DNA of 64,000 nucleotides, taken from NCBI GenBank assembly GCA_043799675.1, contig JAZDNN010000024.1, positions 7,418 through 71,417 of the forward strand, read 5' to 3'. Shown one piece after another: positions 6,047 through 56,695 of the stretch. The stretch is from Candidatus Aenigmatarchaeota archaeon. Its GTDB lineage: Archaea; Aenigmatarchaeota; Aenigmatarchaeia; Aenigmatarchaeales; JACQIB01. The translations under genes and the position numbers were made by a program. Under the pieces are notes generated by a model, which worked only from the letters and a program-made list of their open reading frames with translations, had not been told where the DNA came from and did no database searches. The number at the start of each line of letters is the position of its first letter. Within the stretch, counting starts at the first letter, position 1.

Positions 6047-6253
6047 ATTGCTTTCAGAGGACGGGAGTATAAAAAGCGGAGTGGAGCCTTTAGTCTCCAC
6101 GCCACTTGCGAAACCCAAAAAAAGGTGGAGTGGAGCCTCGGGAGGGAATTGCACCCTCGACCTGCTGTTTGCTTGGTTGCTTACAAGACAGCCGCTCTTC
6201 TGCCTGAGCCACCGAGGCAAGAGATTTAATAGGCCGAGTCTTAAAAGCTTGGC

Positions 6254-49260: not shown

Positions 49261-50127
49261 TTAGCTGCGCTCTCCGGAAACCGTTCCGGTAACTGAAAAC
49301 CCGTTACTGCCGCTATCCAAGTATGTCATCGTTACAGCGAGGGTATATGGATCTCCAACGTGGCCATTCACTCCCATGGTATTTGTGCCTGTCAGCCATA
49401 CCCTTTCCAGAGGGAATAAGTTCATGGGCACGTTCATGGATGGTATTTGTAAACCGTTGACGCTTACAGACGTAATGCTGATGGTATCGCCAACCCTGTC
49501 CTCCACCCACAATTTTAACGTACCATTTGCAGCGTAATCGACATCCAGCACACCTATGTTCGTGAAGCCGCTGATTGTCTTGGGAGTGCAGGTCTGTGAT
49601 TCCTGCGGTTTGCTTGTCGTTGTCCCGCAAGAATTCGTGTCAATGCATGTTCGCATCCGCGTTCCGCCGGCACCGCACGCGGACCATGCATCGCATTGCC
49701 AGTTAGGAGTACATGTACATGGTTGTGTTTCCAAAGGCCTGTCGCTAAACAGATTGCATCTGTTTGCATCCGTGCATACCCTGCTCTGATTTCCCGAATT
49801 ACTGCAATTGGTCCATGCACTGCACTGCCAGTCAGGCACGCAGGGTGGCGTGCAGAACTGGGTTTCAACAGGCTTGTTATAATTCACGCTGCAGGAATTC
49901 GCATCTATGCATGTCCTTGTCTGCGTTCCTGAAGCGGAGCATGCATTCCACGCCCCGCACTGCCAATCAGGCGTGCATACTGGGGGCATCAGAGGCCCAC
50001 TTGGCTTAATCAGGGATTGCACAATATACAACGATGCAAGCGCAACGATTATTACAGCCAGAACCAAGATAATGACGTTTTTCTTTTCGGATTTAGGCAC
50101 ACCTATTTTCTTTTCTGACTTAGGCAC
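49261..50127 (-). CDS. secreted Cys-rich repeat protein, paralog
   Basis: same repeat module. Confidence 0.55.
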   Translation of the reverse strand: MPKSEKKIGVPKSEKKNVIILVLAVIIVALASLYIVQSLIKPSGPLMPPVCTPDWQCGAWNACSASGTQTRTCIDANSCSVNYNKPVETQFCTPPCVPDWQCSAWTNCSNSGNQSRVCTDANRCNLFSDRPLETQPCTCTPNWQCDAWSACGAGGTRMRTCIDTNSCGTTTSKPQESQTCTPKTISGFTNIGVLDVDYAANGTLKLWVEDRVGDTISITSVSVNGLQIPSMNVPMNLFPLERVWLTGTNTMGVNGHVGDPYTLAVTMTYLDSGSNGFSVTGTVSGERS

Positions 50128-50210: not shown

Positions 50211-51795
50211 ATGGAGCAGGAACCTGAAAAGCAGACAGGCAGTCTGCCGAAGGAAATCAAGAAAATCAGCGAGGTCGTCTGGGAACTGCCCACCAGCTAC
50301 AAGAAAGGCATGCGCGTGCCGGCAAGAATATATGCGACCAAGAAGCTGCTCGATGCGATGGACGCGGGAGTGTTCGAGCAGGTCACCAACGTCGCGACCC
50401 TGCCGGGAATCGTCAAGCATGCGTTCTGTATGCCGGATGGGCACTGGGGTATGGGTCAAGTCGCGGCTTGATTCACTCAAATATGGGTTCCCAATCGGCG
50501 GCGTGGCTGCATTCGACCCGAAGGTCGGCGTGATCAGCCCGGGCGGCATCGGGTTCGACATCAACTGCGGCATGAGGTTCGTCACTACCAACCTTACTGT
50601 CAAGGACGTCAAACCCAAGCTGAAAGAACTGGTGGATATCCTGTTCAGGACGGTTCCCGCGGGCGTGGGCGGGGAAGGGTTTGTAAAATTAAGCCGCAGC
50701 CAATTCGACGAAATAATGGTCCAAGGGGCCAATTGGGTCATCGAGCACGGCTACGGTTGGAAAGAGGACACGGAAAGAATAGAGGAGTACGGCTGCATCA
50801 AAGGTGCTGATCCGTCAAAGGTCAGCGACAAGGCAAGGACCAGAGGCATCACGCAGATGGGGACGCTCGGCTCAGGGAACCATTACCTGGAAATCCAGAC
50901 TGCCGAGAAAATTTTCCTTCCCGAAGTCGCAGAGGCATTCGGCGTGAACGAACAGGGGCAGATAGGGGTGATGGTGCACTGCGGCTCGAGGGGGTTCGGC
51001 CACCAAATCGGAACGGATTATCTCAGGATATTCGACATGGCAATGAAGAAGTACAACATCACGGTGCCTGACAGGGAGCTTGCCTGTGCGCCTTTTGCGA
51101 GCCAGGAAGGACAGGATTATTATCACGCGATGGCCTGCGCGGCAAACATGGCTTTTGCCAACAGGCAGGTGATTTTGCACAGGATACGCGAGGCTTTTGC
51201 AAAGGTGTTCAGGAAATCCCCCGAAGACATGGAAATGCACCTGGTGTACGATGTCGCGCACAACGTGGCCAAGGTGGAGAAACACCTGGTCGACGGTCAT
51301 GAAAAGGAACTGGTGATGCACCGGAAGGGGAGCACGCGCTGCTTCGGTCCGGGTAGGCCGGAGATTCCTGAAGCTTACCGCAAGGTCGGCCAGCCGGTGA
51401 TTGTGGGCGGCAGCATGGAAACGGGCAGCTTTTTGTGCGTGGGCACGGACAAGGCTCTGACAGAAACATGGGGAAGCACCATGCACGGCGCGGGCAGAAC
51501 CATGAGCAGGACTTCAGCGAGGAACCAGGGCTCGGGCTTGGCGTTGCAGAAGAAGATGGCCAAGGAAGGGATACTGGTGGAAGCCACGAGCATGAGCGGG
51601 CTTGCAGAGGAAGCGGGCTTTGCCTACAAGGACCTGAACGAAGTGGTCGAGACCATGGAAATCGCGGGCGTGAGCAGGAAGGTCGTTCTGCTGAGGCCTT
51701 TGGGTAATATTAAAGGCACCGCCCGGGCCTCATACAGCCTTTTAGCTTTCCCCATACTTGTCATGGTCTTGGCCTTGATTTCGTCCCTTATCTGA
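50211..51795 (+). CDS. rtcB: tRNA-splicing ligase RtcB, interrupted by a 31-nt frame-breaking insertion (candidate BHB mRNA intron about 50451-50481); C-terminus extended past the usual ...IKG end
   Basis: N-terminal ORF (50211-50471) ends ...AFCMPDGHWGMG*; second frame continues YGFPIGGVAAF...; deleting the 31 nt restores MPDGHWGYGFPIGGV. Confidence 0.8.
50451..50481 (+). other. 31-nt insertion in rtcB (candidate archaeal BHB-type mRNA intron, or pseudogenising indel)
   Basis: flanked by direct repeat TATGGG; exon UGGG (ending 2 nt before the junction) pairs with intron CUCA 2 nt before the 3' junction; internal hairpin UCAAG/CUUGA. Confidence 0.5.
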
Positions 51796-52859
51796 ACGAT
51801 AAGCGGTTCGACCTGTTTCCACCTCGTGATGTTCTTGCCGATTATTTCGAGAATCAATTCCTTTTTGGCCGTTTTCTCGGGATGCCTCAACGGCAGCAAT
51901 TCGAGCATCCGACGGACATCGGCCTTCCTGAAGATTTCTAAGGCGAAATAATCCTTGCTGTATCTTATACTGACCCCATGAGTGTCTCTGCCGTCCCCGC
52001 GCCTGAAAATCCTGTATAGAATTGGATTAAAGCCCTGTTCCCTTAGTTGCCGTTTTATCCTACCAAGCAAGGTTTTATTTTCGGTGCCTATCCGCATACA
52101 ACACTGCAAATTTTCCCTGATTTTCTTGACCAGAAGCGACCCTTCCGCATCGAAGTAGCCGGCCAGGAACGACAGGAAAACATTCCGTTCGGATTCGACC
52201 AACTCTGAAATCAATCGTTTCCTGTTTTCCAGCAAGAGGAAGTCGAAGCTGTTGTCGAGGTCTGCGGATGTCGTCCACATGTAATTTCCAAAAGTTCTGT
52301 TCTTCGCAGGATATGTCCTTACCTTCGCATATCCTTTGAACAGGCTCTCGAAGACATCCAGGAATCCTTCATGAGTCGTGTTGGTTATGGCCCGAATGGT
52401 ATGCTTCGATCTTCTGAAGGCTGTCACATCACCCTCCACGAAACCAACCATGTAAGCCTTTTCTTCATCCTTTCCATCAAAACTTTGCCGTTCATGTTTC
52501 CTGTTTGTCAGCAGGATAGCCTCATCGTTTCCACGCACCCGAAAGCCGTTTTCTTCCAGCACCTTATGCAACGTGCCTTTGGAAGAACCAAATTTCTTGG
52601 CCAGCTTTTTCAACGATATTTTCTCCGTGTCATAAAGTCTCAGAATTTCCGTCACAGGCAGGTGTTTCCTGTGAGACAACGAATGTGCCTGACTGAGATT
52701 CCTTATCGGTATGTCAAGTTTGATGAACCGTTTTCTTACGGCCGACCACGATATATCGTCTCCGAGCTTAACACTCAATATCGCCGCCACTTCTTTGAAC
52801 GTCTTACCGGACGAATAGAGACTCTCGGCTTCCTTCAGGAGTTCGCTGTTCAGCTTCAT
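51624..52859 (-). mobile_element. free-standing LAGLIDADG homing endonuclease gene (HTH N-terminus, two LAGLIDADG motifs)
   Basis: YMVGFVEGDVT and FLSFLAGYFDAEGSL; 3' end overlaps antisense to the extended 3' end of rtcB. Confidence 0.7.
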
Positions 52860-52914: not shown

Positions 52915-53991
52915 CTAATCATGCAGAATACATCCAAAAATATTATTATACCTTCCAGCGAGCGCATTTCTCAACCTGAACGTGTCGCCCTGCGCCGCAT
53001 AGGCCATCCAGCCCTCAAGGCTTTTCGCAGCCTGTTCTGCCGAAATCTCACCGGATTCGTACTGCAGTCTGAGTGCCGTCATCCTTTTTTCGAGCTTCAG
53101 CAGGTTCCTCCTTTTTGGAATCCTGTAGTGGTAGAACACCCTGAAGCCGAGCAACGATATCCCCTTATGCAAAGGGTAGACCTGCGATTTTTCCTCATGC
53201 AACTCTAGCTTTAACCGTTGTTTGAGGAACCCGTTTATCCCGCTCCTGAACTGCATCAGCGCGGCCTCAGACCTGTCCAGAATCACGAAGTCATCTACAT
53301 ACCGGAGATAGAACCTTGCCTTAAGCACGTGCTTCACGAAATGGTCCAGCTCATTCAGGTAGACGTTCGCGAAGAACTGGCTCGTCTGATTGCCTATCGG
53401 CATCCCCTTCGGCAGGGCAGGGTCGTTGTTCGACAGGATTTTCCGTACCAGCCAGAGCACGCTTTCGTCCCTTATTTTTCTCCGTATGATGCCAATCAGG
53501 ACATCGTGGTCGACGCTCGGGAAATAGTGCCTTATGTCGGCCTTCAGTGCATAGCCGACCACCATGTTGTTGTCCTTCGCGCCGTGCACCAAACGGCCGT
53601 TCCCGGAAACCTTTCGCTTGAAGCAATCAAACCTGTCCAATGCTGCCAGGCCGCCCTTTCCCTTCCTGTTGGCGTAGCTGTCGTGGATGAACGTTTTGTC
53701 GAAAATCGGTTCGAGCACGTTGCATAACGCATGATGGACAACACGGTCCCTGAAATGCGAGGCATGAATTACCCGTGTCTTGGGGTCGCGGATGATGAAC
53801 CGTTTCAACGGGCGCGGCGAATACGTACGATTTTCAAGCTCAGTTTTCAAATCTGCCAATTCGCCATCAAGATTAGCTTCGAATCTTTTGACATACCATT
53901 TCTTCGACTTGCCCTTCCTCGCCTTTCTGAATGCCAGCAAAAGGTTCTCTGGCGAGCAGACCTTTCCGTAAAGGTTGTCAAATGTTTTCAA
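52915..53991 (-). CDS. diversity-generating retroelement reverse transcriptase
   Basis: RT motifs including the DGR-specific motif-4 IGNQTSQ (IGxxxSQ) and YVDD; about 358 aa, no maturase or endonuclease domain; TTG start. Confidence 0.85.
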   Translation of the reverse strand: MKTFDNLYGKVCSPENLLLAFRKARKGKSKKWYVKRFEANLDGELADLKTELENRTYSPRPLKRFIIRDPKTRVIHASHFRDRVVHHALCNVLEPIFDKTFIHDSYANRKGKGGLAALDRFDCFKRKVSGNGRLVHGAKDNNMVVGYALKADIRHYFPSVDHDVLIGIIRRKIRDESVLWLVRKILSNNDPALPKGMPIGNQTSQFFANVYLNELDHFVKHVLKARFYLRYVDDFVILDRSEAALMQFRSGINGFLKQRLKLELHEEKSQVYPLHKGISLLGFRVFYHYRIPKRRNLLKLEKRMTALRLQYESGEISAEQAAKSLEGWMAYAAQGDTFRLRNALAGRYNNIFGCILHD

Positions 53992-54021
53992 AAATATCCC
54001 CTATCGGCGGCCCGTGCTATT

Positions 54022-54196
54022 GGCGCAGACCCCGTTGTCATTCAGGCTTCCCGCCAAAAGGCAATGAGGAAGTTTCCTGTTCGAGGGCCTGTTCGCATTT
54101 ATGCCGGCGGAACGTTTCCTTCCAACCGTTCGCATTGAAGCACCCTTGACGGCCCGAAGGCTCTCGTCCGTGTTCCAATCCGACCTGACGGAAGGG
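54022..54196 (-). ncRNA. DGR template repeat (TR), 175 nt unspliced; carries three BHB introns (plus-strand 54146-54162, 54099-54129, 54041-54073); spliced length 94 nt
   Basis: homologous to the 3' ends of the three target genes; Asn-codon (AAC/AAT) rich; see findings. Confidence 0.75.
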
Positions 54197-54436
54197 TTTC
54201 GGTAGCCTCTCCACCGACATGACACCGCGGCTTCAATCTTCGGGAACCTACCAACTGAAACCGCTGAATTTAATGGCACAAGCATTCGGACGGCATGAAA
54301 TGCCATCGCACCATCTTGCGCTCTATGGAAAGGCGTATAGCGCGGGCCTTTGCCGGGAGAATGAAATACCCGCCCCCCGATTGGGAAGGAAAGAACTCTG
54401 TCATGCAAAAATTGAGGGACGAAACGATTTATGCGC

Positions 54437-55183
54437 CTATTTTGAGGTCTTAACCGCTTTTTTTGCGGCGCAGACCCCGAGGTCATGCCTGAGCGAGGGC
54501 CCGCCCGCATCCGCATCGAAGCACCCCCCGTCGGAGTGCCAAGTCGACCTGACGGAAGCCACTTCAACCGGGATTAAGGCTTCTGTTTCGATTTCTACTA
54601 TATCCAGTTTGTTGTCTTTCATCCTGTAAGAAGCCGCTTTCTGTTTGGCCAGCTTTTGGATGACCTCAAGATTATGATTCCAGTAATCGTCCATCGTTGC
54701 CTTGTATTCCTTGTCGGAATTCATCAGTTCAGCCGACTCCTGTGCCTTGAAGTGTCTTACTCCAAAGTCCAGCTTGAACTCCTCGGGTATTCTCTGATAG
54801 ACCAGTTCCTGGATTATCCTGTCCGCATTGGCGATGAACCCTTTGCGTTTATAGTCCCTGAACTTTCCTGCGTCCCCTTTGGCCATCAGGAGCGCATAGC
54901 CTTTCTTTTCAAGGTCCTTTTCCAGCCTCTTTCCGTCAATTATGGCCAATATTTCATCGACCTCTCCCAACCTTTCTTTTACAGAAAAATCATCATCAAA
55001 TATTACAGAGCCATTGTAAGCGGCCAGCTTCGAATCATACGCGCCTGCTGCACGCAGATAATCGAGAACACAGCCTTCAACAGTTACAGGCACGGCTTTT
55101 CCCGTGAACCTGAATTCCCCGTCGATAATCCTCACTTCAGGCTCGGGCATCACGACCGTTGTTATTTTGCTCATGATAATCAT
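54437..55183 (-). CDS. DGR target protein A (variable region at C-terminus, plus-strand about 54467-54560)
   Basis: C-terminal ...SVRSTWHSDGGCFDADAGGPSLRHDLGVCA aligns to the spliced TR with differences at TR adenines. Confidence 0.75.
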   Translation of the reverse strand: MIIMSKITTVVMPEPEVRIIDGEFRFTGKAVPVTVEGCVLDYLRAAGAYDSKLAAYNGSVIFDDDFSVKERLGEVDEILAIIDGKRLEKDLEKKGYALLMAKGDAGKFRDYKRKGFIANADRIIQELVYQRIPEEFKLDFGVRHFKAQESAELMNSDKEYKATMDDYWNHNLEVIQKLAKQKAASYRMKDNKLDIVEIETEALIPVEVASVRSTWHSDGGCFDADAGGPSLRHDLGVCAAKKAVKTSK

Positions 55184-55186
55184 TCT

Positions 55187-55912
55187 TCAGAAGTGCTTCT
55201 TCACGACTTCGAGGTCTTTCATCAAAGCGTCATATTTCTTTGACTTTTCCAGAAGCTCCCGGTATTCGCTCTCCGCGACCTCGCACATCTTCGGAAGCTC
55301 GGCCTTCTCGTCCGTTTTAAGGAGGGCGCAGACCCCGTCGTCAGCCCAGTGCGAGGGCCTGCCCGCAGTCGCATTGAAGCACCCCTCGCCCGTGGTCCAA
55401 GCCGACCTGACGGAAGCTTCACCGTTTTCAAACGAGATGCTTCCCCTCCAGACCTTCTTTTTCGGTTTCTTGAACAGCCCGGCATTCACGAGTGTATCAA
55501 AGACGTCCGATTTGCTTATCCCGGCCCTTGTTCTTTTGCCGTCATATTTGAGTTCACCGTTCACTTCCTTCACGACGGGGTCGGCTATTATCTCGCCCTT
55601 CTCAAGGGCGACTTCCCTGTTGTGCAACCAATAATCAATATTCATTTTCTTGAACGACTTGTCCTCGTGCACCAAATCGTAAGAAACCTGCAACGGCAGG
55701 AGCGTGTAGCGCTCGCCGACCTTCTTTGATACTTCCTGACCGAGAAGCGTCATCTGCCTGTGGTCGAGGTTCGCCACGAGGCCATTGCCTTTGTAGTCGT
55801 TGTGCCCTTCGGCAGGACTTCCCTTCCATTTCGGGAAATACACCGTTTCCTTGCCCGTGGGCGGCACTATCTTTCCCGCTATCTCATGGACGATTTCGGC
55901 CTGTGTTACCAT
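55187..55912 (-). CDS. DGR target protein B (VR plus-strand about 55325-55416)
   Basis: paralog of A; VR differs from the spliced TR only at adenines (11 of 11 differences). Confidence 0.75.
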   Translation of the reverse strand: MVTQAEIVHEIAGKIVPPTGKETVYFPKWKGSPAEGHNDYKGNGLVANLDHRQMTLLGQEVSKKVGERYTLLPLQVSYDLVHEDKSFKKMNIDYWLHNREVALEKGEIIADPVVKEVNGELKYDGKRTRAGISKSDVFDTLVNAGLFKKPKKKVWRGSISFENGEASVRSAWTTGEGCFNATAGRPSHWADDGVCALLKTDEKAELPKMCEVAESEYRELLEKSKKYDALMKDLEVVKKHF

Positions 55913-55972
55913 GAGGACAATACCACCGCAAAGGATTTAAGCGGAAGACTGAACGTAAACGGCTTGAACTAC

Positions 55973-56695
55973 TCAATCGCCGCATTCGTCCAAAGCCGCT
56001 TTCCTAAAATCCAACGATTTAGGAGGGTCCTTCAGAAACTGTTGATATTCGCTCTCCGCAATCTTGCGCACCTTCGGCTTCTCAACGGCCTTGCCCGTTT
56101 TCACGAAGGCGACAACCCCGCGGTCAGGCCCGGAGGAGGGCCAAGACGCACCCACAGCGAAGCACCCAAAACGGTTTCCCGACTTGACGGAAGAAATGCC
56201 GTCATTCTCGTAAATGATGCCCCAATCACAGACGTTGTGATTGAGCTGCTTGAACAGTTTTGCGCTGGCAAGCGTCTTTATCACGGACTCTGCGTCAATG
56301 TTCGCCTTTACGCTCCTGCAACCATCATTGAGCCTGAGCTCGCCGTCGACTTCGCTGACAATCGGGACGGAAATAACATCCCCGTTTCTCCGTATGACTT
56401 CCCTGTTGATTATCTTATAATCGGCCATCATTTTCTTGAAACTTCTGTCATTATGCACCAAATCATAACTCGTCTGAAACGGAAGTTCGGCATAACGCTC
56501 GCCCACTTTCTCGGATATCATCTGACCCAAGAACACGGACTGCCACTTATCGAGAGTCGCAACAAAACCCTTACCGTAACGATCGTTGCGTCCTTCTATC
56601 GGACTTCCCTTCCACTTCGGAAAATACGCCGTTTCCTTGCCGGTAGGCATCCTAATCTTGTCCAAAATTTCATAGACGATTTCAGCTTCACCCAT
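55973..56695 (-). CDS. DGR target protein C (VR plus-strand about 56108-56195; more diverged)
   Basis: paralog of B; VR-like C-terminus with adenine-site pattern plus extra divergence. Confidence 0.65.
   Translation of the reverse strand: MGEAEIVYEILDKIRMPTGKETAYFPKWKGSPIEGRNDRYGKGFVATLDKWQSVFLGQMISEKVGERYAELPFQTSYDLVHNDRSFKKMMADYKIINREVIRRNGDVISVPIVSEVDGELRLNDGCRSVKANIDAESVIKTLASAKLFKQLNHNVCDWGIIYENDGISSVKSGNRFGCFAVGASWPSSGPDRGVVAFVKTGKAVEKPKVRKIAESEYQQFLKDPPKSLDFRKAALDECGD

Follow-up and report, generated by a model that had tools for sequence, protein, structure and literature searches.

We analyzed a 64,000-nt stretch of DNA (the window) from a metagenome-assembled genome of a Candidatus Aenigmatarchaeota archaeon (assembly GCA_043799675.1, contig JAZDNN010000024.1, positions 7,418-71,417 of the forward strand), which carries a diversity-generating retroelement (DGR) whose template repeat (TR) is interrupted by three short inserts. 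Window coordinates are used throughout. On the minus strand, between 52.9 and 56.7 kb, three tandem paralogous target genes, termed C (55973-56695), B (55187-55912), and A (54437-55183) in the order of transcription, are followed by a 445-nt noncoding gap and then by a gene for a 358-amino acid reverse transcriptase (RT; 52915-53991). The initial annotation called this RT DGR-type, and three lines of evidence agree: the open reading frame (ORF) matches the Pfam model RVT_1 (3e-16); its motif 4, PIGNQTSQ, has the [I/L]GxxxSQ form of the DGR clade and is accompanied by RYVDDF; and its closest solved structure is 8ub7 (4e-43), which we take to be the Bordetella DGR RT, with group II intron RTs at 4e-23. 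At NCBI, a protein from a Candidatus Aenigmatarchaeota metagenome-assembled genome is 100% identical to this RT.

The target proteins gave no match in Pfam and PDB sequence searches. Structure prediction, the sole informative approach, revealed a C-type lectin fold, assigned to the domain of gene B, and the variable regions (VRs) lie where a DGR places them, toward the 3' ends of the target genes. VR-A (54467-54558, minus strand) is near the 3' end of gene A and VR-B (55325-55416, minus strand) is in gene B; each is 92 nt long and aligns without gaps to the TR after removal of the inserts. Gene C contains a degenerate VR-like repeat (minus strand, about 56108-56193, the 3' coordinate being estimated) in which 6 nt are deleted and several non-adenine positions depart from the TR. 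The earlier description of three tandem hypervariable paralogues holds for the tandem arrangement, but the repeat of gene C, unlike those of A and B, is degenerate. From their sequences, only genes A and B look currently diversified, and the VR of gene C has decayed and is probably no longer rewritten by the window TR. The 3' end of the gene C repeat, GGGGTTGTCGCC, agrees with the TRs of relatives such as locus L002 and not with the end of the window TR, GGGGTCTGCGCC, which suggests that gene C is an older paralogue whose rewriting has ceased.

A template repeat in four pieces

The TR (54022-54194, minus strand) occupies the gap between gene A and the RT. The initial annotation had placed a fourth copy of the repeat there; the location stands, but the copy is 173 nt long rather than 175, spans 54022-54194 rather than 54022-54196, and lies in a gap of 445 rather than 440 nt. 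Its alignment with the VRs recovered the three inserts of 17, 31, and 33 nt already described, none of which is present in VR-A or VR-B. Without them, a 92-nt template remains (94 nt had been proposed) that is, as had been claimed, colinear with both VRs. It consists of exon 1 (54163-54194, 32 nt), exon 2 (54130-54145, 16 nt), exon 3 (54074-54098, 25 nt), and exon 4 (54022-54040, 19 nt), all on the minus strand. Exon 4 ends in the GC-rich sequence GGGGTCTGCGCC, which is common to the TR, VR-A, and VR-B and beyond which the sequences diverge completely.

Adenines make up 22 of the 92 positions of the spliced TR. VR-A differs from it at 14 adenine sites and 2 other positions (Fisher p 2.5e-9) and VR-B at 11 adenine sites and no others (Fisher p 1.3e-8), which reproduces the reported 25 of 27 differences on TR adenines. 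Both exceptions are the VR-A differences in exon 1, where all other differences are confined to TR adenines. Adenine substitutions occur in all four exons, also beside the junctions, and this pattern, by which DGRs are recognized, appears only once the three inserts are taken out. A single continuous TR, another property by which DGRs are defined, is absent; because of the interruption, the element counts as a DGR variant. Over the 150 nt upstream of the VR, gene A shares only 36% identity with gene B, yet the two genes agree at 68 of 70 non-adenine TR positions. Divergent flanks combined with near-identical non-adenine positions argue that VR-A and VR-B were both overwritten from an intron-less form of the TR. 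The 64-kb window contains no uninterrupted copy of the TR and no other copy of the repeat ends.

Immediately upstream of the TR is a match to the RT-16 RNA motif (Rfam RF03019; 54197-54373, minus strand), whose 57.2 bits exceed the gathering score of 50 and which ends 3 nt 5' of the TR. In 12 related loci (L001, L002, L005-L009, L012-L014, L020, and L164) this motif scores 57-98 bits, and in all 12, as in the window, its end lies 0-3 nt from where the TR starts. Such consistent abutment suggests that RT-16 is a conserved 5' structured element of DGR RNAs in DPANN archaea, and this orphan Rfam motif thereby acquires a functional context. Downstream, the TR lies about 30 nt from the RT start in the sublineage to which the window belongs. 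Another sublineage (L012, L014, L036, L010, L018, L023, and L045) has a 117-amino acid Avd-like ORF lying between its TR and its RT (5661-6014 in L012); a tblastn search with the L012 ORF matched nothing in the window (E above 1). Avd is an accessory protein that many, but not all, DGRs have.

Bulge-helix-bulge geometry of the inserts and its conservation

Each of the three inserts can be drawn as the core of an archaeal bulge-helix-bulge (BHB) intron. With vertical bars marking the junctions, intron 1 (54146-54162, 17 nt) reads GACG AG|A GCC-UUCG-GGC CGUC AA|G, intron 2 (54099-54129, 31 nt) reads AUGC GA|A CGGU..GCCG GCAU AA|A, and intron 3 (54041-54073, 33 nt) reads CAGG AA|A CUUCC..GGAAG CCUG AA|U, all on the minus strand. 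The central helices GACG/CGUC, AUGC/GCAU, and CAGG/CCUG contain four of four Watson-Crick pairs each; the exon strand of the helix leads into a 3-nt bulge, with an inner stem closing off the intron. In all three inserts this geometry falls in a register compatible with the VRs, so that the exon ends 2 nt past the 5' strand of the helix and the intron ends 2 nt past the 3' strand. The archaeal splicing endonuclease EndA recognizes a 4-bp helix flanked by 3-nt bulges and cuts each bulge after its second nucleotide (PMC5829648); cut sites 2 nt past each strand obey this rule. The motifs had been described as textbook BHB structures. The helices, the 3-nt 5' bulges, and the inner stems bear this out, but the outer helices do not: they are weak or offset, with pairs displaced by mismatches or small internal loops. 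Lacking a conserved outer helix, the window motifs belong to the relaxed HBh' class and not to the strict hBHBh' class. In local folds, the BHB core is the centroid structure for intron 1 and is contained in the minimum free energy (MFE) structure for introns 2 and 3. Thermodynamics alone is not decisive here, and we therefore relied on register statistics and covariation.

For these, relatives of the window RT were collected from GTDB genomes (80 loci), JGI metagenomes (80 loci), IMG/VR viral contigs (80 loci), and individual contigs. To find TRs, the 700 nt upstream of the RT were aligned to the rest of the locus, tolerating adenine mismatches and allowing long gaps in the TR only; blastn-short searches of the RT-upstream region against the rest of the locus missed TRs with several introns because the exons are too short. 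A clean TR/VR pair was obtained in 89 distinct loci, 76 of them from the DPANN clade and 13 with RT identity below 49% to the window RT. Inserts of 11 nt or longer, 58 in all, were present in 35 of the 89 loci; those of L065, L156, and L138 proved to be alignment artefacts and were dropped. The remaining set comprises 32 loci whose TRs each hold one to three inserts, 55 altogether, ranging from 15 to 57 nt. Thus, what had been treated as a single locus is a lineage-wide pattern: 32 of 76 DPANN-clade loci, or about 40% of those that could be resolved, have intron-containing TRs.

The distribution of these loci is narrow. Their RTs are always at least 51% identical to the window RT, and none of the 13 loci below 49% identity has an intron; the same pipeline applied to 51 viral DGR loci produced seven chaining artefacts and no BHB-like insert. 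The hosts are labeled Aenigmatarchaeota, Nanoarchaeota, Woesearchaeota, or unclassified archaea; "Methanosarcinales" or "bacterium" also occurs in a few cases, where we suspect binning errors.

Of the 55 inserts, 50 combine a perfect 4-bp helix with an inner stem of 2 bp or more and do so in a register that the VR allows; chance would give about 0.6-0.7. By comparison, when the first 41 inserts were replaced by random genomic positions with the same lengths and the same register freedom, the mean number of BHB fits was 0.59 and the maximum in 2000 trials was 5; in wrong registers, 1 of 738 fitted. After removal of the BHB introns, the VRs of the 32 intron-bearing loci match their TRs with about zero non-adenine mismatches.

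The closest relatives (71-85% RT identity: L001, L002, L084, L086, and L164-L167) have three inserts at TR positions identical to those in the window, and the site of intron 3 is occupied by introns in many other DPANN DGRs. Among these close relatives, 9 of 92 exon columns are variable versus 32 of 81 intron columns: the UUCG loop of intron 1 is replaced by GCAA or GUAA and its stem GCC/GGC by ACAG/CUGU, whereas the stems of introns 2 and 3 vary in both sequence and length. Despite this drift, the 4-bp helices are 100% paired and the inner stems are also kept paired. The exon/intron helix also covaries at homologous sites: that at site 1 appears as GACG/CGUC, AACG/CGUU, CACG/CGUG, or CGUG/CACG and that at site 3 as CAGG/CCUG, CGAG/CUCG, CUCG/CGAG, or CUCG/CGGG.

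When the introns of the 32 loci (55 introns, 50 distinct sequences) are aligned on their junctions, the central helix H is paired at 97.5% and the inner stem h', over three pairs, at 96.7%, with many pair types in each. The covariation score is 0.877 versus 0.203 for shuffles and was reached by 0 of 500 shuffles; sliding the partner by 1-3 columns lowers the pairing to 27-39%. All 55 TR introns start with an A, which forms the third position of the 5' bulge. The first base of the 3' bulge is also A in at least 90% of them, and this bias may come from a sequence preference of the DPANN endonuclease.

The junctions are seen directly in TRs from which an intron is missing. The intron-less TR of L045 reads GACAACAGGAACCCGAATATCGG where removal of the intron from the TR of L012 gives ...CAGGAA|CCCGTG..., that is, the predicted junction. 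Similarly, L078 lacks the site-3 intron found in L007, L008, and L009, and its junction is exactly as predicted.

RtcB and the proposed splicing of the template

The window also contains two BHB-type introns outside the DGR. A gene for the RNA ligase RtcB (50211-51795, plus strand; RtcB Pfam model, 3.6e-157) is located 1.1 kb from the RT; a 31-nt insert (50451-50481) of the form UGGG GU|A, 9-bp stem, CUCA AA|U breaks this gene into two reading frames. The insert is absent from the 95%-identical orthologue in L002, and its removal yields ...MPDGHWGYGFPIGGVAAFDP and restores the conserved motif HWGYGFPIGG. The MFE structure of the insert contains the stem and not the 4-bp helix. We found no report of a BHB intron in RtcB. 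If the gene is interrupted in this way, the ligase that seals BHB-spliced exons would need its own mRNA to be BHB spliced. The second case is tRNA-Thr(UGU) (6131-6218, minus strand), with a 12-nt intron at position 37/38, CUUG UA|A GCAAC CAAG CA|A. It was not flagged by ARAGORN; having the helix CUUG/CAAG and no inner helix, it is a motif of a relaxed type resembling a bulge-helix-loop (BHL). The tRNA and RtcB introns share a 5'-bulge pattern ending in A, the position that is also A in the TR introns. A loose scan of the whole window for BHB cores that would fuse ORFs recovered the RtcB intron among thousands of candidates and was uninformative. Functional linkage between the RT and RtcB genes was considered and rejected as too weak, their synteny being confined to the closest relatives and to L006 and L007. 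BHB introns in both a tRNA and the RtcB mRNA make BHB splicing of non-tRNA transcripts plausible in this organism, and broad-specificity EndA variants that cleave relaxed motifs are present in several DPANN lineages (PMC5829648).

Taken together, we consider it highly likely that the window contains an active DPANN (Aenigmatarchaeota) DGR whose TR is a split gene and is BHB spliced before adenine-mutagenic copying. Transcription would yield an RNA in which the RT-16 structured element is followed by the TR. The three mini-introns would then fold as relaxed HBh' motifs, each helix formed between a 5' strand in the exon upstream and a 3' strand from the end of the intron; EndA would cut 2 nt past each strand, and RtcB would join the exons. 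The DGR RT would copy the resulting continuous 92-nt TR RNA with adenine-specific errors, and the complementary DNA (cDNA) would replace the VRs of at least two target genes with a C-type lectin fold (VR-A and VR-B). Every sequence-level prediction of a spliced template that was tested agreed with the data, and the comparative data add strong support. On the pathway itself, the sequence demonstrates one point only: what was copied into the VRs is free of the introns, exactly at the BHB junctions. Because the VRs have no introns, splicing would have to precede cDNA synthesis at least for productive homing; cDNA could also be made from unspliced RNA and then be removed by selection.

Several observations weigh against this proposal. 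Splicing itself, its enzymes EndA and RtcB, and its timing before cDNA synthesis are all things that we infer. The suggestion that folding would confirm the three motifs was borne out by local folds, all of which contain the cores, but not by the fold of the whole 206-nt region, which retrieves the intron-3 motif alone; the z-scores of the local folds against shuffles are an unremarkable +0.5, -0.9, and -2.0. One mismatch is present in the 4-bp helix of 5 of the 55 inserts. The outer helix is paired at 48.7%, which is the chance level, and without it, cleavage would require an EndA that accepts relaxed motifs. Finally, the window DGR has no detectable Avd, and its biochemistry may differ from that of the studied model.

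If the RNA is not spliced, the inserts could be lost during copying, with the DGR RT jumping across the hairpin bases by template switching so that the cDNA lacks them. The 4-bp helix does juxtapose both exon ends, which speaks for such a jump. However, a jump does not predict a fixed 4-bp helix with 3-nt bulges and junctions 2 nt past the strands, as seen in 50 of 55 inserts, and this is precisely the EndA rule. The like geometry in the RtcB mRNA and in a tRNA of the same genome involves no RT, and the inserts are restricted to DGRs of the archaeal clade; we therefore regard template switching as improbable. We assign a similarly small chance to removal of the inserts from the RNA by an activity other than EndA and RtcB, either another nuclease and ligase or self-cleavage. 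On the one hand, the inserts lack the outer helix that the strict motif has, and EndA was not located in the window, where no search aimed at it was made. On the other hand, known self-splicing introns are larger than these inserts of 15-57 nt, the region matches no ribozyme or intron family of Rfam at E values up to 1, the inserts have precisely the geometry of relaxed BHB introns of archaea, and RtcB is adjacent.

A still less probable explanation is that the interrupted copy is a relic and that the VRs are rewritten from a continuous TR outside the window, which covers 64 kb of a contig recorded as 96 kb. The window itself has no second copy. In every relative, the interrupted copy sits at the canonical site between the RT-16 RNA and the RT, its exons are conserved while its introns drift, and in 32 independent loci the VRs fit the BHB-spliced TR with about zero non-adenine mismatches. 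The last possibility, named beforehand as what would overturn the initial annotation, is a decayed pseudo-target with random indels that fold as BHB motifs by chance: BHB cores are indeed low in information, with thousands of loose matches in the window, but the adenine-specific differences, the exact register, the covariation of the helices, the conservation of sites across lineages, and the lack of such inserts in bacterial and viral DGRs effectively refute it.

A template that is spliced before it is copied would raise the question of what the introns are for: protection of the TR, stability of the repeat array, or regulation of mutagenesis. They cut the DNA homology between TR and VR to stretches of at most 32 nt. 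Speculatively, this might reduce recombination among the direct repeats or shield the TR from its own cDNA. Equally speculative is the idea that the introns couple diversification to the state of the RNA-splicing machinery, or that intron-less TR alleles arise when cDNA overwrites the TR. A stronger version is possible, though we hold it to be rather less likely than its opposite: DPANN DGRs might depend on BHB splicing as a licensing step that is obligatory and under selection, and not carry it as a tolerated passenger, with the introns blocking TR-VR recombination and overwriting and tying diversification to EndA and RtcB. If this were true, the ligase, tRNA maturation, and hypermutation might form one feedback circuit, since the RtcB mRNA itself would need BHB splicing, and TR introns would mark archaeal hosts for DGRs and viruses of uncertain origin.

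Known relatives of the system and neighboring genes

An intron that is present in a donor and lost from its copy marks transfer by way of a spliced RNA, as established with Ty1 and LINE-1 reporters. The window DGR shares this loss with processed retrocopies, but here it appears built in and conserved in a domesticated prokaryotic element, being neither a marker nor an accident. The locus would thus be a natural counterpart of the intron-loss experiment, offering sequence-level evidence for a processed RNA intermediate in the flow of archaeal DGR information. In the DGR of Bordetella phage BPP-1, a TR tagged with the td intron is said to have been engineered by Guo and coworkers in 2008. The closest precedent is experimental: a td group I intron engineered into the BPP-1 TR is self-spliced out prior to cDNA synthesis (Naorem et al. 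2017, PMC5703328), so that in the laboratory construct the spliced TR is the template. Both systems have an RT with adenine infidelity and one-way transfer of information from TR to VR, via RNA, into a protein with a C-type lectin fold. However, the window introns are natural, number three per TR, and are conserved across the lineage; they are of the protein-dependent archaeal BHB type and not group I introns, with a presumed dependence on host tRNA-splicing enzymes. The systems also differ in that RT-16 lies 5' of the window TR, whereas the RT-10/Sp element of BPP-1 lies 3' of its TR, and in the absence of a detectable Avd from the window.

The DGRs known from DPANN and other archaea (Paul et al. 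2015, PMC4372165) have RTs of the same clade and the same kinds of hosts. That study described DGRs in Nanoarchaeota SCGC AAA011-G17 and did not report an interruption of the TR. In a locus from this genome (L026; AQRL01000028, 1646-1749) we observed an 18-nt TR insert of BHB form, CUCG AA|A UCU..AGA CGGG AC|U, and a further 16 TR nucleotides past the insert match the VR; the connection with the published DGRs is made at the level of the genome and not of the locus. In the literature that we covered, which does not include Paul et al. 2017 (Nat Microbiol), nothing was found that links DGRs to BHB introns or to the splicing endonuclease, and TR interruptions go unmentioned in the main DGR papers, archaeal studies and surveys alike. 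Thus, the element is of a known type, a DGR, and the survey supports the view that its split-TR form is widespread in DPANN archaea, with no prior description found. We expect that tools that assume colinear TR and VR truncate or miss split templates; if they do, estimates of DGR activity and TR length in archaea may be too low.

Noncanonical archaeal BHB introns, which occur in tRNA, rRNA, and a few pre-mRNAs (PMC5829648), resemble the TR introns in having a 4-bp helix and 3-nt bulges, in being very short, in taking relaxed HBh' forms, and in needing a broad-specificity EndA. What differs is the substrate, which in the window is the noncoding template RNA of a retroelement, and the outcome, which is written into DNA as intron-less VR retrocopies. 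Under our proposal, the few known kinds of BHB substrate (tRNA, rRNA, and few mRNAs) would be joined by the template RNA of a retroelement, and the archaeal tRNA-splicing pathway would be connected with a hypermutating retroelement, two systems not known to interact.

Two further ORFs flank RtcB. Between RtcB and the RT is a 411-amino acid ORF (51624-52859, minus strand) with LAGLIDADG_3 and helix-turn-helix domains. The RtcB ORF, which is about 25 codons longer here, overlaps this ORF with its 3' end. The 411-amino acid ORF is not present in L002 and L003, where the RT and RtcB are directly convergent; from its sequence and distribution, it looks like an inserted element of the homing-endonuclease type. 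Just upstream of RtcB, a 288-amino acid ORF (49261-50127, minus strand) contains tandem cysteine-rich repeats of the form C-TPDWQC-AW--CS-SGTQ-R-C-D-N-C and looks like a secreted or surface repeat protein.

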